From Candidatus Planktophila sp. (GTDB lineage Bacteria > Actinomycetota > Actinomycetes > Nanopelagicales > Nanopelagicaceae): 64,000 bases of DNA. The notes under the pieces are model-generated. The model was not told the DNA's origin. It made no database searches and saw nothing but the letters and a program-made list of their open reading frames with translations. Location of the stretch: positions 25,874 to 89,873 of the forward strand of contig JBIIQY010000001.1 of assembly GCA_044341805.1 (NCBI GenBank), in the 5' to 3' direction. Positions 108 to 15,963 of this stretch are shown here, piece by piece (positions within the stretch are counted from its first letter, which is position 1; each line of letters starts with the position of its first letter). A program made the translations under genes and the position numbers.

Positions 108-761
108 ATGAATCTTCCGCTACCAATGCCTGGAAAGGTAATCGCCGTCGGTCTTAACTATAAAGACCATGCAGCCGAGGCAAATGTCCCACTACCAGAA
201 GTTCCAGTCCTATTTACTAAGTGGACAACATCTTTGATTGCTCATGATGACAACATTGTGATCCCAGCCGGTGTAACACAGACAGACTGGGAAGCAGAGT
301 TCGCGGTAGTAATTGGCAAGAAAGCTGTTCGAGTATCAGAAGCCGATGCACTTAGCTATGTTTCTGGATATACCTGTATGAACGATGTAACAGATCGAGA
401 AGCACAGGGTAAAGATGGCCAGTGGGTGCGAAGTAAGTCATATGACACCTACGGTCCGATCGGTCCTCGCATTGTTCCGGCCAGTGAAATCGGTGATCCA
501 CACAATCTAAAGATTGAAGCTCGCTTGAATGGAAAGACGGTTCAGTCAAGCAATACCTCAAATCTAATTTTTAGTATCCCTTTCTTAATTTCATATATCT
601 CAGCACGCATCACCTTGGAACCGGGCGATGTAATCACCACCGGAACACCTCATGGAGTTGGTGCGTTCTCAAAGCCACCGCTATTTATGAAACCTGGAGA
701 TGTAATTGAAGTCGAGATCGAGAAGATCGGAATTCTAAGAAACAAAGTCGTAGGGGCTTAA
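108..761 (+). CDS. Fumarylacetoacetate hydrolase family protein
   Basis: VGLNYKDH, DWEAE, NDVT-R, QWVRSKSYDT, TGTP motifs; AAAGG RBS. Confidence 0.92.
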   Translation: MNLPLPMPGKVIAVGLNYKDHAAEANVPLPEVPVLFTKWTTSLIAHDDNIVIPAGVTQTDWEAEFAVVIGKKAVRVSEADALSYVSGYTCMNDVTDREAQGKDGQWVRSKSYDTYGPIGPRIVPASEIGDPHNLKIEARLNGKTVQSSNTSNLIFSIPFLISYISARITLEPGDVITTGTPHGVGAFSKPPLFMKPGDVIEVEIEKIGILRNKVVGA

Positions 762-763
762 TT

Positions 764-1531
764 GTGAGTTACAAAGGATCTTCGCAACCTCTTGCGGTAA
801 TCACCGGAGGAGCTAACGGAATTGGTTTGGCAACTGCGCATCAATTAGCAAAAGATGGCTACGACCTTTTCCTGATTGACAAAGATCTGTCTAACCTTGA
901 AGTTGCGCGAAATTCGTTGGGGATTCACAACCGCAAGGTCGAAATTCTAAATATTGACCTCTCTGATGGCGAGAATGTCCTACGCGAACTCGGCAAAAAG
1001 TTTAGTGAATTCGAAGTAGATGCCCTCGTAAATAACGCAGGTATTGGCTTTGCTAGAACTGTCGAGCAAACAACCCTAGAAGAGTGGGATCTAACCTTTG
1101 ATGTAAACATCAAGGCTACTTTTTTGATGTGCAAGTTGATTGTGCCTCAAATGGTTGCTCGTAAAAAGGGCGAAATAGTTAATGTGGCATCTGCTGGTGC
1201 CTTGGTTGGGCTTAAGAATAGAGTCGCCTACTGTGCATCTAAAGCTGCAGTGGTTGGTTTAACTCGTTGCATTGCAGCAGATCACGCACTCGATGGGATT
1301 CGAATCAATGCCATTGCACCCGGAACAGTTGATTCAACTTGGATCGGTCGAATACTTTCTGATGCCCCTGATCCTGTGGCCACGAGAAAGTTGATGGAGG
1401 CTCGTCAGCTTGATGGGAAGATGGGAACACCTGAAGAAGTTGCACATGGAATTGCGTTTCTCCTAAGTCCCGAAGCAAGATTTGTGAATGGCACTGTGTT
1501 TTCAATGGATGCCGGACTTACAGCGGTATGA
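764..1531 (+). CDS. SDR oxidoreductase, 2-keto-3-deoxy-sugar-acid dehydrogenase-like
   Basis: TGGANGIG, NNAG, YCASK; the NRVAY, PGTVDSTW and ARQ motifs resemble the 2-keto-3-deoxy-L-fuconate dehydrogenase group. Confidence 0.85.
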   Translation: MSYKGSSQPLAVITGGANGIGLATAHQLAKDGYDLFLIDKDLSNLEVARNSLGIHNRKVEILNIDLSDGENVLRELGKKFSEFEVDALVNNAGIGFARTVEQTTLEEWDLTFDVNIKATFLMCKLIVPQMVARKKGEIVNVASAGALVGLKNRVAYCASKAAVVGLTRCIAADHALDGIRINAIAPGTVDSTWIGRILSDAPDPVATRKLMEARQLDGKMGTPEEVAHGIAFLLSPEARFVNGTVFSMDAGLTAV

Positions 1532-2139
1532 AATCTGGTGTAATTGCTGTAATTCGAACTGATGATCCAGAGATTGCTCTAACGCTGGCTAGAGGTTTCA
1601 ATGCAACAAGTGTTGATGCCATTGAAGTCACCATGACGGTACCTAACGCACTGCAAGTTATTGAGAAATTGCTAGCAGAAGGTGTCACACGTTTAGGTGG
1701 TGGAACCGTTCGAACCATAGAACAAGTTCAAAGATTGCAATCTATGGGTGCTGCTTTTGGTGTTGCGCCAAATTTGGATGAAGCAATTCTTAAGGAAGCT
1801 GTGCGAGTAGGTTTGCCATTTACCCCGGGCACGTTAACTCCATCCGAAATGGTTCGAGCTCAACAACTCGGCGCAACAAGTCTGAAGGTTTTTCCAATAA
1901 GTGCGGTGGGTGGTATTGAATTTATCCATAGCGTTTTGGAGCCTCTTCCTGATTTAGCGCTGGTGGTATCCGGCGGGGTCCAACCGGCAGAAGTGCGCTC
2001 GTATATCGATGCAGGATGTGTTGGGGTGTGCATGGGTGGGGCGCTTTGGAGCCAAGAAATTGCCATGACCCATGATGTGAAAGCTGTTTACCACTATGCG
2101 TGTGCAGCCCTTGAAAGGATTGCCAACCCAACCCGATAA
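1528..2139 (+). CDS. KDPG/KHG aldolase family protein (Eda/DgoA-like)
   Basis: IAVIR, IEVT, GGGTV, PGTLTPSE, LKVFP (Schiff-base Lys); ATGA coupling to the SDR. Confidence 0.88.
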   Translation: MKSGVIAVIRTDDPEIALTLARGFNATSVDAIEVTMTVPNALQVIEKLLAEGVTRLGGGTVRTIEQVQRLQSMGAAFGVAPNLDEAILKEAVRVGLPFTPGTLTPSEMVRAQQLGATSLKVFPISAVGGIEFIHSVLEPLPDLALVVSGGVQPAEVRSYIDAGCVGVCMGGALWSQEIAMTHDVKAVYHYACAALERIANPTR

Positions 2140-7543: not shown

Positions 7544-9943
7544 CTAAGAGTTAAGACTCAATGCAGCTAATGCGCCATTGATGATCGACTCCGCATTCAA
7601 ATCATGGATGGCATACAAATCTGGGATATTTCCTGATTGTCCGAAATTATCCACGCCCATAGCAACTTGTGGCATCCCGAGCGCAGATCCTAACCATGCC
7701 ATGGCATGTGAAGAACCATCATGGATAGAAACTATTGGAGCTTTTTCGGTGAATGTAGTTCTTAAGACGCCAGGTAAAGATGGAGTCGTAGCAGTGCGAA
7801 TTCCCTGCTTTAAGGTTCGCTGCCAACTTCCAAAAACTCGGCCTAACGAAGTGATGTCAATGACGTGAGCGATAACGCCCTCTAAGGCGAGTTGTTTAGC
7901 TGCCGCTAGAACTTCTGGCATCACAGCGCCGCTACTAGCCAAGTAAACAACTGGTGCAAGATGATTATCCTGTTTTGTTAAAGCACTTCGACCGTCTACT
8001 AATTTATAAGCACCTGCAAGTACTTGTGAACGCAAGGTTGCTTCACCGATACGTTGTTTTGCTTCATAAAATGGTTGTTGGTCTATGGATCGTGTAGTTA
8101 GTCTGAAATAAAAAGCCAGTTCGTTAGGTCTAAGATCTGGTGCGGTATTTTTCTTTGCTCCAGCGACGTGTGCTAATGCATCACACAATAACCAATCAAG
8201 AGACTGAGCATACGCAGGCTCCATAAGTACTACACCTGGTAATTCAACTCCAACAGATGGCGTAATTGTTGATTGATGTGCCCCTCCTTCTGGAGCAAGT
8301 GTTATTCCTGATGGAGTGCCAGCAACTATAAACTTTGCGCCAGAATAAACGCTGTAGATAAATGCATCTAGTCCTCGCAAAACAAATGGATCATAAACAG
8401 TACCTATTGGAATGAGAGGCTGGTCTGAGATATCTCCTGAGATTCCGAGCTGGCCCAATAAAGTAAATAGATTCATCTCACTGATCCCAAGTTCGATGTG
8501 TTGGCCATTGGGACCTTCTACCCATTTTTGAATTGAGTTGTCATTCCACTCGCGTTTAACATCCTTGTTAAAGATTCCATGCCGATTTATGAATCCACCC
8601 AGATTTGTAGAAGTCGCAACATCCGGAGCCGTGGTGACCAAATACGGTCTAATTTCTTCATTCCTGCTGAGTTCGGTCAGTACGCGCCCAAAAGCCTCTT
8701 GGGAAGATGAGGATCCTGTCGGCGCTATGCCTGTCGAATGAGGAAACTCGGCCACGATTTCAGCTTTTTTGGAGGCCCGCTTCAGCGAGTGAGCTCTCGA
8801 TAAACAGAGAGAATCCTCTGCACTTCCAGGCTCAAACTTACTCCACTCATTTGATTCAGTTAATCCCGTCAAGTTCCGTAACTCATCAATCTGCTTTTTT
8901 GAAATTTGCGCTGAGTGATTTCTCTTGTCTCCGGCGATAGGTAGATGCCATCCTTTGATTGTGTAAGCAAACACAACACTTGGCTTGTCTTCTACTTCAT
9001 CACATTCTTTAAATGTTTCTAGCAGTGATGAAATATCATGTCCACCTAAGTCAGTTAGAATCTCGAAAAGTTCTTCATTATTGTATTTTTCTAAAAACTT
9101 GCTCACGCCATCGGGTGAACCCTCTAAAAATCGAATTCGAGCTGCTTCAGGAGTGAGCCCAAAAAGTGATTGATACTGTTCGTTTGGAATCTGGTCAAAC
9201 CAGACTTTGAATTTATGGCTATCTGAATCTTCAAATACCCTATTTAACTTCGAACCATACTTCACTTCTTTAACATGCCAACCAGCCGCTTCAAATTGTG
9301 CTCTCCATTGTGCAATGCGAACTCCAGGAATTACACGATCCAGAGACTGTCTATTGAAATCCACAATCCACATTACGTTTCCTAAATTGGTGGTTATGGG
9401 ATCGGCGAGTGCTTCCCAAATATTTCCTTCATCTAATTCAGCATCACCAATCACCGAAATAAAACGAGATTTCGGCCTTGGTCCAAAATGTGAATCCACG
9501 TACTGCCTTGTAACTGCCGCAAACAAAGGTGCAACTGCACCTAAGCCAACCGATCCAGTTGAAAAATCAACTGTGTCCGGATCTTTTGTCCTTGAAGGAT
9601 AACTTTGTAAACCACCTGCTTCACGAAGCTTTTTTAAGTAATCCTGATCAAGATTTCCTAAAAGGTATTGAATGGAGTGAAAAACCGGAGATGCGTGAGG
9701 CTTAATGCTTATACGATCTTCGGAGTCCAGAAAATCAAAATATAAGGCAGTTAGAATCGAAGCCATCGACGCACTAGAAGCTTGATGCCCACCAACCTTT
9801 ATGCCGTCTACATTAGGCCTGTCGGAATTGGCATAGTCGATCATTCTGGTAGACAGCCATAAAACACGATCTTGAATAGCCTCTAATACTTCAAGTTCGC
9901 CCGTGTGATTTAACTCAGCCTTAACACCAATTTCAGAGTTCAT
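7544..9943 (-). CDS. ThDP-dependent AceE-like (pyruvate dehydrogenase E1 / transketolase family) enzyme
   Basis: VGGHQASSAS, KPHASP, STGSVGLG, GDAELDEG...NRQSLD ThDP motif, ELGISE, EGGAHQS, FGQSG. Confidence 0.9.
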   Translation of the reverse strand: MNSEIGVKAELNHTGELEVLEAIQDRVLWLSTRMIDYANSDRPNVDGIKVGGHQASSASMASILTALYFDFLDSEDRISIKPHASPVFHSIQYLLGNLDQDYLKKLREAGGLQSYPSRTKDPDTVDFSTGSVGLGAVAPLFAAVTRQYVDSHFGPRPKSRFISVIGDAELDEGNIWEALADPITTNLGNVMWIVDFNRQSLDRVIPGVRIAQWRAQFEAAGWHVKEVKYGSKLNRVFEDSDSHKFKVWFDQIPNEQYQSLFGLTPEAARIRFLEGSPDGVSKFLEKYNNEELFEILTDLGGHDISSLLETFKECDEVEDKPSVVFAYTIKGWHLPIAGDKRNHSAQISKKQIDELRNLTGLTESNEWSKFEPGSAEDSLCLSRAHSLKRASKKAEIVAEFPHSTGIAPTGSSSSQEAFGRVLTELSRNEEIRPYLVTTAPDVATSTNLGGFINRHGIFNKDVKREWNDNSIQKWVEGPNGQHIELGISEMNLFTLLGQLGISGDISDQPLIPIGTVYDPFVLRGLDAFIYSVYSGAKFIVAGTPSGITLAPEGGAHQSTITPSVGVELPGVVLMEPAYAQSLDWLLCDALAHVAGAKKNTAPDLRPNELAFYFRLTTRSIDQQPFYEAKQRIGEATLRSQVLAGAYKLVDGRSALTKQDNHLAPVVYLASSGAVMPEVLAAAKQLALEGVIAHVIDITSLGRVFGSWQRTLKQGIRTATTPSLPGVLRTTFTEKAPIVSIHDGSSHAMAWLGSALGMPQVAMGVDNFGQSGNIPDLYAIHDLNAESIINGALAALSLNS

Positions 9944-10954: not shown

Positions 10955-10994
10955 ATTGTAAACAGTTGACGATTGGATATCAAGGTACTAGCAT
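10955..10994 (+). promoter_or_regulatory. Operator copy 4 overlapping the -35 of the dehydratase-kinase-enolase promoter, in a divergent intergenic region
   Basis: ATTGTAAACAGTTGACGA (10955-10972; revcomp TCGTCAACTGTTTACAAT); TTGACG(10966-10971)-17 bp-TAGCAT(10989-10994). Confidence 0.75.
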
Positions 10995-11002
10995 CCGGTT
11001 TT

Positions 11003-12106
11003 ATGGATGCGATCAGCAGGATCCAAACTTATGAAGCTCGAGTTCCGCTTCCGCAACCGCTATCAGTAGGCACTGCGCAAATTACTCATCGGACTTACTC
11101 AGTTGTACGAATAACGACAAACGATGGTTTGGTAGGAATAGGTTATTGCTACAGCAGAGGTCTGCCAATCTCAAAATTAATCGATGACGTAATGACACCT
11201 GTTGCTATTGGTAAAGACTCAAAATCACCCGATGTCGTACGCAAACTCATTCTTGGATTTAACTGGCAATCTAGCGAACACGGCACGGTTACATCTGGAG
11301 TGAGTGCGATAGATATTGCGCTACATGACATAGCAGGAAAGCGTGCCGGAATTAGTGTCTCAAAAATGCTCGGCGGTACCGTGACTGAGGTTCCCATTTA
11401 TTCAGTTGTTGGATATCACTATGGCGAGAATGAAGTCGGACTTGAAGAAGAAATACACCATGCTTTAGAGCGGGGAATAAAATCATTTAAAATTGTTGTT
11501 GGGGCTAGAGATCCTCAAAGAGATGCCAATCGATTAAGGACTCTAAGAAGCCTGGTTGGCGACAGTGCATATATTGCAGTTGATGCATTTCGAACTTTTG
11601 GCACTTTAGAGAATGCAATTGCCAGAGTTAATCTAATCAAAGAGTATGGGATTTCCTTTGTTGAAGACCCTTTCCTAGAATCTGAAGGTAAATTAGCTAT
11701 TGCATTACGAGATGCCACCGGTGTTCCAGTTTCATTTGGAGAATCTCTTGCCTCTTCAAAAATGGCAGAGCAAGTCATTGATTACAACCAAGTAGATGTT
11801 CTGCGAATTGATGCATTGGTTATTGGTGGAGTAAATGAGTTCATCAAGGCTGCGAACTATGCCCACGCTAAAGGCAAGAGCTATGCAACGCATATTCATA
11901 GTGAAATACATGCTCAATTGGCTCCTTTGACCTCAAACATGTATCCAGGGGGCTTGGAGTACTTAGATCCACGGTATGAAATTGATCTATTCCATCATTT
12001 ATTGCTTAAACCACTTAAAATTAGGGATGGAAATGCAATCATTAGTTCAGAGCCTGGCTTTGGAATTGCTTGGGATATGGAAGCAGTGAAAAGATTTTCT
12101 TCGTGA
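11003..12106 (+). CDS. Mandelate racemase/muconate lactonizing enzyme family protein (probable acid dehydratase)
   Basis: SAIDIALHDIAGK; metal ligands VDA/VEDP/GES; D (RIDA), H (THIH), E (LEY). Start moved to ATG 11003 because the promoter covers the TTG at 10973. Confidence 0.9.
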   Translation: MDAISRIQTYEARVPLPQPLSVGTAQITHRTYSVVRITTNDGLVGIGYCYSRGLPISKLIDDVMTPVAIGKDSKSPDVVRKLILGFNWQSSEHGTVTSGVSAIDIALHDIAGKRAGISVSKMLGGTVTEVPIYSVVGYHYGENEVGLEEEIHHALERGIKSFKIVVGARDPQRDANRLRTLRSLVGDSAYIAVDAFRTFGTLENAIARVNLIKEYGISFVEDPFLESEGKLAIALRDATGVPVSFGESLASSKMAEQVIDYNQVDVLRIDALVIGGVNEFIKAANYAHAKGKSYATHIHSEIHAQLAPLTSNMYPGGLEYLDPRYEIDLFHHLLLKPLKIRDGNAIISSEPGFGIAWDMEAVKRFSS

Positions 12107-12135: not shown

Positions 12136-13119
12136 ATGGAACTATTAACTGAAGAAACGGTGATTGATTACCTGAAGGATAAGAGTCTCTTTGCTCAGGA
12201 TGAAGAAATTAGAGTTGAAATCCTGACAGGTGGCGTTTCCAATACCGTTCTTGCAATTTCTACAACGAATAGGCATTTAGTTCTGAAGCAAGCTCTCCCT
12301 GCGCTAAAGGTAGCCGAACTGTGGGAAGCAGATCCCCGTAGAGCAATAGTTGAGGCAGATGCTTTAGATCTTTTCCATAGCCTTAATCCAGAGATTGTTC
12401 CCAAGTTAGTTTTTGTCGACCCCATTCGGTTTGTGGTCATTATGGAGAGAGTTCCGCTCTCAAGCAGAGTATGGAAATCAGATTTGCTTGAAGGGATCTA
12501 TCGGCCGCAAGTTGCTCACACTCTTGGGAAAACTCTCTCTCAGTGGCATAACTACGGTGCCTCAAATCCTGTTGCTCGCAAGAAGTTCATGGAAGACACC
12601 TTGTTTGATCAGCTAAGAATTGATCCTTTCTATCGATTTGTTGCAGCCAAGAATGCAAAATTACAAGATTCAATTCAGCATTTAATTGCTGAACTAGAGA
12701 GTGACAAATCAACAATAGTTCATGGAGATTTTTCTCCCAAGAATTTTATGGTCACAGAAGATGATCACGTCTATATCTTGGATTTTGAAGTAATGCATGT
12801 GGGGAACCCTGTATTTGATCTAGCATTCATATTGGCTCATCTGTTATGTAAGTTTTTCCACGCACCCAATGCGAAAGAAGCTGCTGAGTTATCAAATATT
12901 GCAAAAACCTTCTTGAACGCCTATCAAGAACAAACTGAGATTTCAGTATCTCTGGTGCTGCACACCGCCTTAATTGCACTTGCACGAGTCGAAGGTAAAT
13001 CACCAGTTAACTACTTAAGCACGTCTGAACAAGAAAAGATTCAACTGCTGACCAAGAAAGTGCTGTTTGATCAAGAAACACCGAATGTCTTGACTCTTTT
13101 TGATTTGAGTAAGCGATGA
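12136..13119 (+). CDS. APH/choline-kinase-fold phosphotransferase, methylthioribose-kinase-like
   Basis: LTGGVSN, VLKQALPALKV, HGDFSPKN, LDFE, GNPVFDL. Confidence 0.85.
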   Translation: MELLTEETVIDYLKDKSLFAQDEEIRVEILTGGVSNTVLAISTTNRHLVLKQALPALKVAELWEADPRRAIVEADALDLFHSLNPEIVPKLVFVDPIRFVVIMERVPLSSRVWKSDLLEGIYRPQVAHTLGKTLSQWHNYGASNPVARKKFMEDTLFDQLRIDPFYRFVAAKNAKLQDSIQHLIAELESDKSTIVHGDFSPKNFMVTEDDHVYILDFEVMHVGNPVFDLAFILAHLLCKFFHAPNAKEAAELSNIAKTFLNAYQEQTEISVSLVLHTALIALARVEGKSPVNYLSTSEQEKIQLLTKKVLFDQETPNVLTLFDLSKR

Positions 13120-14387
13120 AGATCAGCAAATTACTGGGGTTTCAGGTTTTGGATTCCAGGGGTAGACCAACTGTCGCTGCTTCAATCACTCTAGAAGATG
13201 GCACCACCCATACTGCACGTGTGCCGTCGGGAGCTTCGACTGGAAAGCATGAAGCTTTGGAATTACGCGATGGCGATACATTAGGTAAAAATTCTTTCTA
13301 CGGACCGCTTTCGGTTTCTGGGGCGGTCAGCAATATAAATCTACGAATTGCACCATTAGTGGTTGGGAAACAGGCTGACCTGAATTTCGTTGATGGTGTT
13401 ATTCGCGACATAGACACAACATCAAATTTTTCTTCACTTGGCGCTAATGCGACTCTGGCAGTTTCTTTAGCTTCGGCCAAAGCTTCGGCACATTCGCAAA
13501 ATCTGTCTCTGGCTCGATTTTTTCAACCACACGATAATTTGTTGATTCCGATGCCCATGGTGAATATTCTTTCCGGCGGAGCACACGCAAAACGATCACT
13601 TGATTTCCAAGATGTTCTCGTAATTCCAAACGGTGCAATTTCCTTCACAGAAGCCTTAGCCTGGATTGTTGCTATTCGAGAAACAGCTGCAAAACTTGGT
13701 AGCCAGGCTGGAATGGTCACGCACTTAGTTGCTGATGAAGGTGGCTTGGGAATAGCTTTTAATTCAATTGAATTAGCAATTGATTTTGTTGTTCAGGCAA
13801 TTGAAAAAGTCGGTCTAAAGCCAAAAACTCAAGTTTCATTTGCGCTAGATGTTGCCTCTACCCAGTTTTTCTCTAATGGGACATATAACTTAGCCGCTTC
13901 TAAAAAAACTTATGCATCGGGTGATTTTGTCTCTTACATACATGGGCTGGTTTCGAATTATCCAATAGTTTCGATTGAAGATCCCTTTGCAGAAGATGAT
14001 TGGCAGAGCTGGAGTTCCTTTATGGACATTGCCCCCAAGGATTTGCAAGTGCTTGGAGATGATCTATTAACAACTAATTCTGAGCGTTTGAAAAGAGCTA
14101 TCAAAGAGCAAGCTGCGAACTCAATTTTGATTAAACCAAATCAAAATGGATTAGTGACAAACACCCACAAAGTATTGATGGAAGCACAAAGTGCAGGGTT
14201 TAGGACCGTGGTCTCTGCACGTTCTGGTGAGACAGAAGACTCTTGGTTGTCTGATTTGGCAACTGGATGGCGAGCAGCTCAAATAAAAGTTGGCTCGACT
14301 CATGGTTCAGAACGAACAGCTAAATGGAACCGCTTGCTCGAATTAGAGCAGACCGAAAATGTGGAGTTCAGTAAACCGTTCAAGTGA
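13116..14387 (+). CDS. eno: Enolase paralog (phosphopyruvate hydratase-like), divergent
   Basis: DSRGRPTV, PSGASTG, ELRDG, DEGG, IEDP, GDDL, LIKPNQ, SARSGETED, QIK; ATGA-coupled to the kinase. Confidence 0.9.
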   Translation: MKISKLLGFQVLDSRGRPTVAASITLEDGTTHTARVPSGASTGKHEALELRDGDTLGKNSFYGPLSVSGAVSNINLRIAPLVVGKQADLNFVDGVIRDIDTTSNFSSLGANATLAVSLASAKASAHSQNLSLARFFQPHDNLLIPMPMVNILSGGAHAKRSLDFQDVLVIPNGAISFTEALAWIVAIRETAAKLGSQAGMVTHLVADEGGLGIAFNSIELAIDFVVQAIEKVGLKPKTQVSFALDVASTQFFSNGTYNLAASKKTYASGDFVSYIHGLVSNYPIVSIEDPFAEDDWQSWSSFMDIAPKDLQVLGDDLLTTNSERLKRAIKEQAANSILIKPNQNGLVTNTHKVLMEAQSAGFRTVVSARSGETEDSWLSDLATGWRAAQIKVGSTHGSERTAKWNRLLELEQTENVEFSKPFK

Positions 14388-14391
14388 TGCT

Positions 14392-14476
14392 TGGTGGCGG
14401 GTGAAGGATTTGAACCTTCGAAGGCAGAGCCGGGGGATTTACAGTCCCCTCCCATTGGCCGCTCGGGCAACCCGCC
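14392..14476 (-). tRNA. tRNA-Tyr (GTA)
   Basis: Revcomp GGCGGGTTGCCCGAGCGGCCAATGGGAGGGGA-CTGTAAA-TCCCCCGGCTCTGCCTTCGAAGGTTCAAATCCTTCACCCGCCACCA; long variable arm, encoded CCA. Confidence 0.97.
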
Positions 14477-14580
14477 AAGGTCGAACAAGTACTGCGGCAA
14501 TTATGGATAGTGCGAAGGGAAAGGATACCTTAGGCAAGTGCGCATACAAACCGCGCTTTTTCGAGTCAAGGAGTCCTTAA

Positions 14581-15072
14581 ATGGCAGCAGATGCAAGTTT
14601 TGACGTAACCTCCAAAATCGACCGTATGGAGCTGGATAACGCCATTAACCAGGCGGTCCGCGAGATCGAGACCCGCTTTGATTTCAAGAACACCGGTTCC
14701 AAAATTGAACTGGAAGGCGATAAGGTTTTGATTGAAGCAGATACCGAAGAGCGCGCGAAGGCGGCGCTAGATGTTGTAAAGGACAAGATGATCAAGCGTG
14801 GTGTTTCTTTGAAGCATCTAGATGCAGGTACTCCGCAGTTGTCAGGAAAGATTTACAAGATTGCAGCACCTTTGAAGGAAGGCATCTCCACTGAGAATGC
14901 AAAGAAGATTGCAAAGAAGATTCGTGATGAGGGCCCAAAGTCTGTTAAGACTCAAATTCAAGGTGACGAACTCCGCGTTACTTCAAAGAGTCGTGATGAT
15001 CTTCAAGAAACAATGGCCATGATCAAAGATGGTGGCTGGGATTTTGCCGTTCAATTCACGAACTTTAGATAA
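14581..15072 (+). CDS. yajQ: YajQ family nucleotide (c-di-GMP)-binding protein
   Basis: [34 protein letters not shown]. Confidence 0.95.
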
Positions 15073-15963
15073 TTGAGTAAAAATAAGCTCGGTCTTTTAT
15101 TTGGTGTAAGTGCTTACACCTTGTGGGGATTGTTTCCGCTGTACTGGCTACTGTTGGCTAAAGCTAATCCTCTTGAGATTGTTTCACACCGTGCTGTGTG
15201 GACTCTCGTTTTTTGTCTTATCGTCTTGGCCGGAACAAAGGCATTGAAATCAACTCTATTGACGTTACAGCGCCCCATGGTTGCGGCAAAACTCTTTCTA
15301 TCATCCATTTTAGTGTCAGTTAACTGGTTAGTTTATATCTGGGCAACAAACAATGAGCATGTTGTTGAAGCATCGTTGGGTTACTACATAAATCCATTAG
15401 TCATTATTGGTTTTGGTGTTATCTTGCTAAAGGAGAAAATGCGGAGACTTCAATGGGCTGCTGTCACAATCGCAACGATTGGTGTTTTGGTTTTAACAAT
15501 TGATTATGGAAGATTTCCATGGATCGCATTTGCGCTGGCAGTTTCATGGGGTAGCTACGGTGTGGTTAAAAAGCAGTTGGGCCTGGGGGCGCTGGAAGGT
15601 CTAGCTATTGAAACCTTTATTTCCAGCTTCTTTTATCTGGGATACCTGATTTACATTGGCAATCAAGGCACTGGCCAGTTTGGTCAGGAATGGGGATTTA
15701 CGGCACTTCTCATAAGCGCAGGTGCAATCACAGCAATTCCTCTATTGCTGTTTAACGGCTCAACAAACAGACTTCCATTTACAACAATTGGTTTACTGCA
15801 ATACATAACACCAACGATTCAATTTTCAATTGGTGTCTGGATACTTCAGGAAGATATGCCGACAGCGCGATGGATTGGTTTCTTGATTATCTGGGCAGCC
15901 TTGGTAACGCTAGCTTTAGATTTGATTAGATCAAGCAGAACGGTCGATAACAGCGTCGCATAG
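15073..15963 (+). CDS. rarD: EamA family transporter RarD
   Basis: AYTLWGLFPLY, EIVSHR, EASLGYYINP, GLLQYITPT; hydrophobic. Confidence 0.93.
   Translation: MSKNKLGLLFGVSAYTLWGLFPLYWLLLAKANPLEIVSHRAVWTLVFCLIVLAGTKALKSTLLTLQRPMVAAKLFLSSILVSVNWLVYIWATNNEHVVEASLGYYINPLVIIGFGVILLKEKMRRLQWAAVTIATIGVLVLTIDYGRFPWIAFALAVSWGSYGVVKKQLGLGALEGLAIETFISSFFYLGYLIYIGNQGTGQFGQEWGFTALLISAGAITAIPLLLFNGSTNRLPFTTIGLLQYITPTIQFSIGVWILQEDMPTARWIGFLIIWAALVTLALDLIRSSRTVDNSVA

Follow-up and report, generated by a model that had tools for sequence, protein, structure and literature searches.

True enolases are regarded as single-reaction enzymes. The enolase homologue of phosphinothricin biosynthesis, PhpH/BcpE, resembles the enzyme described here in being a true-enolase paralog with a substrate other than free 2-phosphoglycerate (2-PG); it differs in being biosynthetic and in acting on a phosphonoformyl-modified glycerate, and we know of no APH kinase partner for it. 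Glycerate kinases are divided into classes I-III, as defined after PMC2063504. In canonical enolase, the glutamate of the QE motif is Glu163 in the numbering of PMC10619443, where the E163A enzyme is reported to be non-functional. A literature search for a pair of the kind described below, for an L-glycerate kinase and for an L-2-PG enolase found no description, subscription journals and bioRxiv supplements aside.

The window, that is, the whole stretch of 64,000 nucleotides of Candidatus Planktophila sp. DNA that was analysed, contains a small-molecule kinase gene followed by a gene for a variant enolase. The relevant features are as follows.

108..2139, forward strand: FAH hydrolase, SDR and KDPG-type aldolase; orthologues 61-83% identical in the sister clusters L150 and L146
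2218..5857, forward strand: pyruvate phosphate dikinase (PPDK) and GlpX; PEP-handling, gluconeogenic genes of the same cluster
10973..12106, forward strand: mandelate-racemase-family (MR) enzyme, Pfam MR_MLE; directly upstream of the kinase, 29 nt gap
12136..13119, forward strand: APH/MtnK-like small-molecule kinase, 327 aa; Pfam APH PF01636, E 8.8e-18
12229, forward strand: GGVS loop of the kinase (Gly loop motif)
12721-12744, forward strand: HGDFSPKN motif of the kinase
12781-12789, forward strand: DFE motif of the kinase
13116..13119, forward strand: ATGA stop/start overlap of kinase and enolase, seen in the sequence
13116..14387, forward strand: variant enolase, 423 aa; Pfam Enolase_N and Enolase_C
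13572..13574, forward strand: S153, a clade-specific change (N in 95/100 canonical enolases, S/G in 134/136 variants)
13611..13613, forward strand: D166 (codon 166, GAT), replacing the QE glutamate
13731..13739, forward strand: A206-D207-E208, a clade-specific Ala (G in 100/100 canonical enolases) beside the kept acid catalyst E208
14133..14135, forward strand: K340, the catalytic lysine, kept in 136/136 variants
14217..14219, forward strand: A368 (codon 368, GCA), replacing the SHRSG histidine
14286..14315, forward strand: KVGSTHGSER loop; V392 and S394 clade-enriched, G397 family-private

The initial annotation had reported the ATGA overlap, the QD and SARSG changes at codons 166 and 368, and the positions of PSGAS, GGAH, DEGG, LIK, SARSGET, QIK and HGSER; all of these were found in the sequence as described. 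The overlap suggests that the two genes are translationally coupled. The variant enolase has the two-domain enolase fold and matches the family HMM, scoring 415.8 bits with TIGR01060 (cut-off 300); therefore, databases call it eno. A single-sequence fold prediction (pLDDT 31.5) was discarded in favour of an alignment-based AlphaFold model (pLDDT 96.4), which matched solved enolases in Foldseek with TM 0.92-0.95. In the alignment with solved enolases, D166 corresponded to the QE glutamate and A368 to the SHRSG histidine, which we take to be the equivalents of yeast E168 and H373. The Mg ligands D/E/D, S41, H157, the base K340, the acid E208, R369/S370 and K391 are kept. Residues H157, Q165, D245, E288, D315, K340, R369, S370 and K391 were conserved in 135-136 of the 136 variants and E208 in 135; a hydroxide or alkoxide as the leaving group would be consistent with the retention of E208.

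The canonical glutamate and histidine around the C3 hydroxyl were replaced in 136 variants, as against 100 E+H sequences. Among 145 near-full-length representatives at 50% identity, 35 carried D+A, 99 E+H and 9 other pairs; since there was only 1 D+H and 1 E+A, the D+A pairing is not due to chance. In a tree built with six diagnostic columns removed, a 143-tip clade (support 0.98) held 135/136 variants and 0/100 canonical enolases, so that the variant enolase did not group with housekeeping enolases. The expectation that QD and SARSG enolases would form a clade was thus borne out, and the changes are not private to this strain. Further marks of the clade are N153 to S/G, GDEGG to ADEGG and KTG to K[VI]GS. 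The HGSER change, also pointed out in the initial annotation, is present but is private to the enzyme's own freshwater actinobacterial family rather than a mark of the clade; outside that family, variants mostly retain Arg at this site (TRSER, ARSER, FSRSER). The clade is under strong purifying selection, dN/dS of the variant enolase being about 0.07-0.08 against three relatives; pseudogenisation, which had been named as a possible refutation, was not observed, and the catalytic residues are conserved. A canonical QE/SHRSG enolase, 44% identical to the variant, was found elsewhere in the genome, on contig C48, as had been anticipated. Every tested member of the clade scored above the curated cut-off, and a large enolase clade is probably mis-annotated as eno.

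The kinase carries the Gly loop, the catalytic Lys (motif lysine K51), HGDxxxxN and DxE of the APH/choline-kinase-like superfamily, and its motifs were invariant across 26 homologues. PF02595, MOFRL and P-loop folds gave no Pfam match at E <= 0.001. The top PDB matches were the MTR kinases 2pyw and 2olc (E 9e-11 and 8e-8). However, the kinase does not belong to MtnK: its TIGR01767 profile score was 96.8 bits against a cut-off of 275, and its context is not methionine salvage, genes of which were absent among the recurring neighbours of kinase loci.

Members of this one kinase family have the variant enolase beside them, or fused to them, across actinobacteria, proteobacteria, Bacteroidota and haloarchaea. 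Paracoccus seriniphilus, Azospirillum brasilense Sp7 and Rhodococcus opacus PD630 are among the cultured organisms that have the pair. The two were adjacent in 21/21 plasmid loci fetched (out of 33 records) and in 64/80 metagenome loci, and the enolase was present in 78/82 kinase-bearing genomes from a sample of 200 of the same family. The initial annotation had envisaged that the enolase always lies beside an HGDFSPKN-type kinase; the linkage is indeed tight and includes four kinase-enolase fusion proteins, but 16/80 metagenome loci lacked the enolase, 11 of them at a contig end. Four further proteins join the kinase to the true D-mannonate dehydratase UxuA, whereas the long representatives P0175, P0198, P0223, P0249 and P0258 proved not to be kinase fusions. 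A scan of genome contigs with a single kinase query gave 4 loci only. The kinase and paralog are kept even in genomes of 1.0-1.5 Mb that have a canonical enolase. Kinase and altered enolase form a fixed two-gene unit.

The MR enzyme gave 3,6-anhydro-L-galactonate cycloisomerase (E 5e-32) and L-talarate/galactarate dehydratase as its best PDB matches, and the order MR enzyme-kinase-enolase was repeated in related loci; judging from these matches, it probably dehydrates a sugar acid and belongs to one operon with the kinase. The FAH/SDR/aldolase arm likely releases a three-carbon acid. Applied to a hexonate, the FAH/SDR diketo route gives pyruvate and glycerate, and the FAH and SDR genes beside the pair may, by analogy, do the same. 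The pair stands first in the operons of L018, L025, L028 and L029, which also contain FAH and SDR genes; for L028, the closest match of the FAH was L-2,4-diketo-3-deoxyrhamnonate hydrolase (8GSR, E 2e-81), and the SDR came closest to 9JVE, 9KQ1 and 6D9Y, the last a putative L-KDR 4-dehydrogenase according to PMC11199699. In L023, an isomerase, a PfkB kinase, a class II aldolase and an aldehyde dehydrogenase precede the pair. Lactonase, FAH, SDR and aldolases recurred as sugar-acid neighbours. For the GlcD/GlcF-kinase operons, a glycolate-glyoxylate-glycerate reading was rejected, as five of five genomes had no glyoxylate carboligase above cut-off and no malate synthase. A U32-like neighbour matched only unnamed U32-like clusters in an atlas search. 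Twenty-two lake or freshwater metatranscriptome runs shared words with the operon, and in the three that were aligned to it, short contigs at >=99% identity covered parts of the MR, kinase and enolase genes and of their neighbours; these matches were not counted as expression because the neighbours also matched, depth was 2-5 and DNA carry-over is possible.

The position of the pair can be compared with that of the ordinary glycerate kinase GlxK. Each gene of the window's left arm has a counterpart (57-83% identity) in L150 and L146, where GlxK directly follows the aldolase. L137 reads FAH-GlxK-SDR, its FAH and SDR being 55-68% identical to the pair-adjacent ones. GlxK was present in 10/82 kinase-positive and 44/118 kinase-negative genomes, with a genus-stratified odds ratio of 0.30 that overstates the effect because kin are not independent, and it was fragmented or split in 4/10 of the kinase-positive carriers. 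Class II glycerate kinase was found in 0/201 genomes of the family, which leaves D-glycerate without another known outlet in those that lack GlxK. None of 20 GlxK loci had an extra enolase. Since GlxK goes without an enolase partner and the kinase almost never does, the kinase product is probably not D-2-PG. L050 holds the kinase, the variant enolase and GlxK in one run; therefore, the two kinases are not simply redundant.

The conserved clade, the kinase linkage with its fusions, the separate housekeeping enolase and the lack of pseudogenisation together indicate a route on a substrate other than ordinary 2-phospho-D-glycerate, and to this extent the phosphorylate-then-eliminate logic first proposed holds. 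We infer that the housekeeping enolase does not accept the kinase product and that stereochemistry at C2 is the reason. Our preferred, though tentative, reading is that the pair disposes of a three-carbon tail acid, in the likeliest case L-glycerate, which is left by sugar-acid cleavage and cannot be handled by the housekeeping enolase. Sugar acids would be split by the FAH/SDR/aldolase arm to leave this acid; after its phosphorylation at the C2 hydroxyl by the kinase, dehydration by the variant enolase would yield ordinary phosphoenolpyruvate (PEP). Replacement of Glu by Asp and of His by Ala would make room in the pocket for the mirror-image substrate to seat its carboxylate and phosphate in the usual places; speculatively, the lysine and glutamate may swap acid and base roles. 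The pair may accept D-glycerate too, which would explain the decay of the ordinary glycerate kinase where the pair is present. Accordingly worded, the clade may be a mirror-image enolase acting on 2-phospho-L-glycerate from a fourth, APH-fold class of glycerate kinase, two pocket changes inverting the stereospecificity, although the chances are somewhat below even.

A glycerate-sized substrate is supported by the GlxK placement in L150, L146 and L137 and by the depletion of GlxK. The preferred reading is also supported by PEP carboxylase in 4 and PPDK in 3 pair-bearing loci out of 129 kinase loci (PPDK also in one further genus), by a LarA-type racemase before the kinase in L100 (above cut-off) and L102, and by the clusters of genera g258 and g261, in which D-hexonates are already served by homologues of KDG kinase and KDPG aldolase and the pair is kept nonetheless. 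LarA-type enzymes racemise glycerate far better than tetronates, according to PMC11770544. However, if the kinase takes the D form, such a racemase would remove the need for an L-specific enolase, GlxK depletion is most easily read as shared use of D-glycerate, and a 4R-specific dehydrogenase would also take D-KDGal, releasing D-glycerate. A D-configured acid is likewise suggested by the UxuA fusions and by genes of the D-specific 2-hydroxyacid dehydrogenase family in 20/129 kinase loci, frequently as the gene just before the kinase, for which a PDB search gave general matches within that family only. Class II glycerate kinases reportedly have 13-34% activity with L-glycerate (PMC2063504), and five metagenome loci with room have no enolase next to the kinase, a partner that G501, with its intact kinase, lacks as well. 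These dehydrogenase neighbours would suit a 3-substituted lactate of D configuration, such as sulfolactate or a glycerate carrying a 3-O-methyl or another 3-O-substituent, which would arise from hexoses substituted at C6 or from substituted 2-oxo acids, with PEP again as the product. The enlarged pocket, with smaller side chains at both positions, would let a bulkier leaving group depart and accept plain D-glycerate as well, K340 and E208 would stay in their canonical roles, and this would account for the depletion of GlxK as well as for why a second enolase is needed; O-demethylase-like genes lie near the pair in L011 and L122. This is nevertheless unlikely, since very diverse contexts would all require such substituted sugars. 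As for sulfolactate, sulfoquinovose isomerase and sulfolactate dehydrogenase were best matches upstream of the window and in L023, but far below cut-off (265 and 159 against 700; 247 against 500); an SftI-like gene occurred in 1/5 complete pair-bearing genomes, and TauE genes in 5/5, none in the pair's locus. The sulfolactate form was therefore set aside, this evidence being uninformative to weakly against it.

Somewhat more doubtful still is a reading in which a new APH-fold D-glycerate 2-kinase is co-regulated with a paralog that is simply a 2-PG enolase of the ordinary kind, its two changes offsetting each other. The in-place GlxK swap, GlxK depletion, the UxuA fusions, the absence of class II kinase from the family genomes and the TIGR01060 score all fit, but against it stand the extra enolase beside nearly every kinase, even in the 1.0-1.5 Mb genomes that have a canonical one, and its absence from all 20 GlxK loci; L050 holds both kinases, and canonical enolase needs Glu163 (PMC10619443). 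Taken over L-glycerate, substituted D-lactates and plain D-glycerate, true PEP is the probable product. The initial annotation had instead proposed that a C3-substituted 2-phospho acid is dehydrated to a PEP analogue, yielding a 2-keto-3-deoxy acid for the aldolase/SDR/FAH arm; on this route a tetronate, 4-deoxytetronate or pentonate would be C2-phosphorylated and the PEP analogue would be C3-substituted. Pocket enlargement, as judged from the residues, the hydrophobic V/I392 and the sugar-acid neighbours would fit such a substrate, and the 2-oxoacid dehydrogenase E1 genes and PPDK of window-type clusters could take a 2-oxobutyrate-type product. This route is rather improbable because a third enzyme would be needed to remove the phosphate and none recurs: a crude screen found the pyruvate-kinase motif in 0/149 loci, PPDK or PEP carboxylase occur in a minority, and no phosphatase family recurred among pair loci (a HAD-phosphatase motif screen also found nothing, but it was weak and missed an annotated HAD gene in L013). 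Moreover, IlvD-, MR- or UxuA-type dehydratases in many loci do the step without ATP, the neighbours consume true PEP, and the sister clusters put glycerate kinase in the slot while keeping the E1 genes without the pair. The context appears reversed: the arm would release a three-carbon acid and the pair would dispose of it. That the paralog is catalytically dead or decaying, with a binding or regulatory role only, is very improbable; two normally invariant catalytic-site residues are changed and a few copies are broken (L029 frameshift, G570 stop), but the low dN/dS and the nine conserved residues named above argue against it.

If the L-glycerate reading is true, a catabolic enolase clade with another substrate, above all an enantiomer, would be new enzymology, in which two pocket changes are enough to reverse the stereospecificity of an enzyme central to glycolysis. 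An orphan kinase family would gain a named function, and the gap in the use of L-glycerate that comes from acids of L-sugar and uronate origin would be closed. The mirror-image enolase would be carried by about 4 in 10 genomes of a dominant lake-actinobacteria family. Metabolic models of these streamlined freshwater actinobacteria miss a step, the kinase being present in 82/200 sampled genomes. PEP can be read at 240 nm. Both enantiomers of 2-phosphoglycerate are commercially sold, according to bioRxiv 10.64898/2026.05.18.725363.

Among known systems, MtnK (TIGR01767; PDB 2OLC, 2PYW) comprises the nearest characterised kinases, with the N-lobe and the HGD/DxE motifs in common, but the kinase described here is about 70 residues shorter. 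With its APH fold it also lies outside all three classes of known glycerate kinases (GlxK/GarK class I, MOFRL class II). The L-rhamnose and L-fucose diketo-hydrolase routes (LRA5/LRA6, FucF/FucG) are nearest to the pair-adjacent SDR and FAH; they differ in ending in pyruvate and L-lactate or glycolate, and PMC11199699 describes no kinase/enolase step for them. The lower branch formed by GlxK and enolase in the non-phosphorylative Entner-Doudoroff, glucarate and tartrate pathways (PMC2063504) likely follows the same logic, from acid to 2-phospho acid to PEP, and GlxK takes the matching place in the sister clusters; however, the kinase described here comes with an altered enolase of its own, and there is none in GlxK loci. 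Canonical enolase (EC 4.2.1.11; TIGR01060; PF03952 and PF00113; PDB 4ROP, 7CLL, 1E9I) shares with the variant its fold, 40-44% identity, three Mg ligands, the phosphate-binding residues and the catalytic Lys and Glu. The variant differs in QD, SARSG, N153S/G, G206A and K[VI]GS, forms a separate clade, and is an accessory enzyme that occurs together with a canonical one and is bound to a single kinase family.

The two genes of the pair were located in the window as follows.

12136-13119, + strand: kinase ORF
13116-14387, + strand: enolase ORF, sharing an ATGA overlap with the kinase ORF

The overlap, D166, A368 and the enolase motifs listed in the initial annotation were all borne out by the sequence. 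A canonical eno, sought elsewhere in the genome (857,629 bases, 55% complete), was present on contig C48, with 44% identity to the paralog; contig C61 (1236-1880) encoded a second, weak homologue of the kinase (25% identity, E 2e-5). The closest named relative among the fetched loci was a Candidatus Planktophila record (83%), which suggests that the host is a freshwater actinobacterium belonging to that family. The paralog passed the TIGR01060 profile, and an enolase fold was predicted for it (model pLDDT 96.4; TM 0.92-0.95 with solved enolases). In the alignment to solved structures, D166 replaced the glutamate of QE and A368 the histidine of SHRSG. By yeast enolase numbering, these positions correspond to E168 and H373, and the histidine lies near the C3 leaving group. 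In canonical enolase, according to PMC10619443, a lysine is the base, the C3 hydroxyl is removed by the DEGG glutamate, and the E163A mutant is non-functional.

Among 248 near-full-length enolases from the fetched loci and from 50%-identity representatives, 136 had D at position 166 with A or V at 368 and 100 had E with H, mixed states being rare. S41, H157, Q165, E208, D245, E288, D315, K340, R369, S370 and K391 were retained in 135-136 of the 136 variants, which commonly shared further changes (N153 to S or G, G206 to A, V or I at 392, and S394). In a FastTree tree built after removal of six diagnostic columns, one 143-tip clade (support 0.98) contained 135 of the 136 variants and no canonical sequence; a single representative protein, P0142, was the variant placed outside it. 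Thus, the two substitutions are not private to this strain and mark one clade. The change of S-R-S-E-R to HGSER was also present in the paralog, but HGSER and HGADR were restricted to its own family, Nanopelagicaceae. Comparison with three relatives gave a dN/dS of 0.07-0.08 (enolase) and 0.04-0.07 (kinase); dS was close to saturation in these comparisons.

Tblastn with the kinase as query matched 33 plasmid records, 21 of which were fetched; these spanned actinobacteria, alpha-, beta- and gammaproteobacteria, Bacteroidota and haloarchaea. In every one of these, an enolase lay at most 6 kb from the kinase, with QD and SARSG in 20 and a more divergent sequence in one. Four kinase matches were found among 400 phylum genomes, each with an adjoining enolase. 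For metagenomes, the best 80 of 572 loci included 64 with an enolase, carrying QD and S[AV]RSG at every covered site; in 11 of the other 16 the contig ended less than 500 bases from the kinase, and five had room yet no adjoining enolase. Four proteins were kinase-enolase fusions (P0128, P0154, P0141 and P0276). The linkage proposed in the initial annotation is therefore conserved. Among 200 own-family genomes, the kinase was found in 82 and a close paralog of the variant enolase in 65. Of these 82, 77 had either the close paralog or another enolase match; 13 genomes were counted through the latter, with variant motifs confirmed in 4 of the 13. The enolase of one further genome was interrupted by a contig end. 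The enolase was lost at the kinase locus in genomes G501 and G587, the G587 kinase having an internal stop; in G453, a stop lay inside the kinase and the enolase was present.

Several unusual loci were observed. Beside the kinase of G501 and G587 (L167, L169), both enolase and FAH were absent, and a nearby block, as read from sequence, resembled a membrane hydrogenase. Genera g258 and g261 (L156-L166) had another kinase subtype, more distant at 36-39% identity, which followed GlcD/GlcF-like genes; here the variant enolase came after an ABC transporter gene and one resembling RraA. On an Enterobacter plasmid (L030:8193-18826), the kinase and a U32-like gene lay in a biosynthetic-looking cluster (aminotransferase, iron-containing redox enzymes, peptidase, MFS); the enolase there was far more altered (QD, CEKGG, AGRSI) and had no DEGG acid. 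In P0272-P0275, a true D-mannonate dehydratase UxuA (above cut-off) was fused to the kinase. In P0271 (7 cluster members), the kinase followed a domain weakly matching D-proline reductase PrdB, which could be read-through of two genes rather than a fusion.

Neighbours were counted by ORF clustering and family scans in 129 kinase loci, which are not independent: SDR in 40, FAH in 31, MR-family enzymes in 26, D-2-hydroxyacid dehydrogenase and U32-like protein in 20 each, IlvD-type dehydratase in 15, lactonase in 13, a VOC dioxygenase cluster in 8, PPDK in 5 (two of them without enolase) and PEP carboxylase in 4. Because these contexts are varied catabolic funnels, a small common product is suggested. 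The FAH/SDR route converts a 2-keto-3-deoxy acid to pyruvate and a tail acid, a hexonate giving glycerate. Four proteobacterial loci had the order kinase, enolase, FAH, SDR, and L023 carried an aldolase-plus-aldehyde-dehydrogenase version of the acid-releasing route. At L028, the FAH was nearest to L-2,4-diketo-3-deoxyrhamnonate hydrolase and the SDR to the 6D9Y group, 6D9Y being a putative L-KDR 4-dehydrogenase in PMC11199699. A LarA-type racemase lay before the kinase in two loci; this group racemises glycerate, according to PMC11770544.

The U32-like protein (L037:6591-7523, 19 other loci, also L156-L171) was a TIM-barrel protein without conserved cysteines. In many own-family genomes, its gene is co-transcribed with those of the pair and of lactonase and SDR. 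Since no recognised aldonate dehydratase was found in the g258/g261 cluster, the protein could represent a novel lyase or dehydratase there. Another cluster recurred with the pair (L015, L017, L020, L022, L024, L027, L031, L014), comprising an extradiol-type VOC dioxygenase, cupin, Zn dehydrogenase, FAH and 2-hydroxyacid dehydrogenase; PEP carboxylase and acyl-CoA genes frequently accompanied it.

The following features also belong to the window's own cluster or its edge.

7544-9943, - strand: AceE-like thiamine enzyme gene, mid-cluster on the opposite strand
10973-12106: MR-family enzyme, second KxK lysine absent, strand-7 histidine kept
14392-14476, - strand: tRNA-Tyr, starting 4 bases past the enolase stop

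Judged by its KxK lysine and strand-7 histidine positions, the MR-family enzyme is more likely a dehydratase than a racemase. Among relatives, the AceE-like gene occurred only in L002 and L003. Relatives diverged right at tRNA-Tyr; therefore, insertion at this tRNA may have brought in the catabolic cluster as an island. Upstream of the window, L001:4004-5404 and 14130-15137 had sulfoquinovose isomerase and L-sulfolactate dehydrogenase as best family matches, both far below cut-off.

The ordinary glycerate kinase GlxK (PF02595) was present in 54 of 201 own-family genomes; a class II glycerate kinase was detected in none of the 201. GlxK was rarer alongside the kinase (10 of 82 genomes, versus 44 of 118 without it); the genus-stratified odds ratio was 0.30, or 0.21 with only full-length single-piece matches, and the p-values overstate this depletion because relatives are not independent. 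Two of the 20 GlxK loci fetched for comparison, L150 and L146, matched the window's cluster along its left arm at 57-83% identity (Ldh2-type dehydrogenase, GntR, SDR, E1 beta, E1 alpha, 2-hydroxyacid dehydrogenase, FAH, SDR), and the L150 aldolase was 61% identical to the window's. There, GlxK and a second 2-hydroxyacid dehydrogenase came straight after the aldolase; in the window, the pair was located further along the cluster, and no GlxK was seen in the incomplete assembly of the window's genome. L137 had the order FAH-GlxK-SDR, its FAH and SDR being 55-68% identical to those beside the pair elsewhere. One run in L050 held kinase, variant enolase and GlxK.

In the proposed mechanism, upstream enzymes would free a three-carbon 2-hydroxy acid, the kinase would phosphorylate its C2 hydroxyl with ATP as donor, and the paralog would eliminate the C3 group to give PEP. 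This PEP would then be consumed by PPDK, by PEP carboxylase or by the housekeeping enzymes. No further dedicated enzyme would be needed, in keeping with a crude motif screen in which neither a phosphatase nor pyruvate kinase recurred at the loci. Since the kinase, unlike GlxK, retains a dedicated enolase even where the genome is as small as 1.0-1.5 Mb, the housekeeping enolase probably does not accept the kinase product.

L-glycerate is tentatively favoured as the substrate because, of the tail acids glycolate, D-/L-lactate and D-/L-glycerate, it alone has, to our knowledge, no known direct route; none was found in the literature covered. A 3-substituted D-lactate is unlikely and plain D-glycerate less likely again, and both stay alive on four counts against L-glycerate: a D-specific dehydrogenase often lies immediately upstream of the kinase, the kinase also occurs fused to UxuA, GlxK is itself depleted, and L-glycerate side activity is reported for class II kinases in PMC2063504. 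The longer aldonate of the initial annotation, whose 2-phospho derivative would be dehydrated to a PEP analogue, is the least probable of these substrates.

The pair was not described in the literature covered, including PMC12994016 and bioRxiv 10.64898/2026.05.18.725363, most subscription papers lying outside this coverage. It may be concluded that the pair is real and widespread and follows, in variant form, the glycerate-kinase/enolase logic, with a putative substrate. It differs in its kinase, which belongs to a new family, and in its enolase, whose pocket is remodelled; whereas enolase was absent from all 20 GlxK loci, the kinase of the pair brings its own variant enolase.
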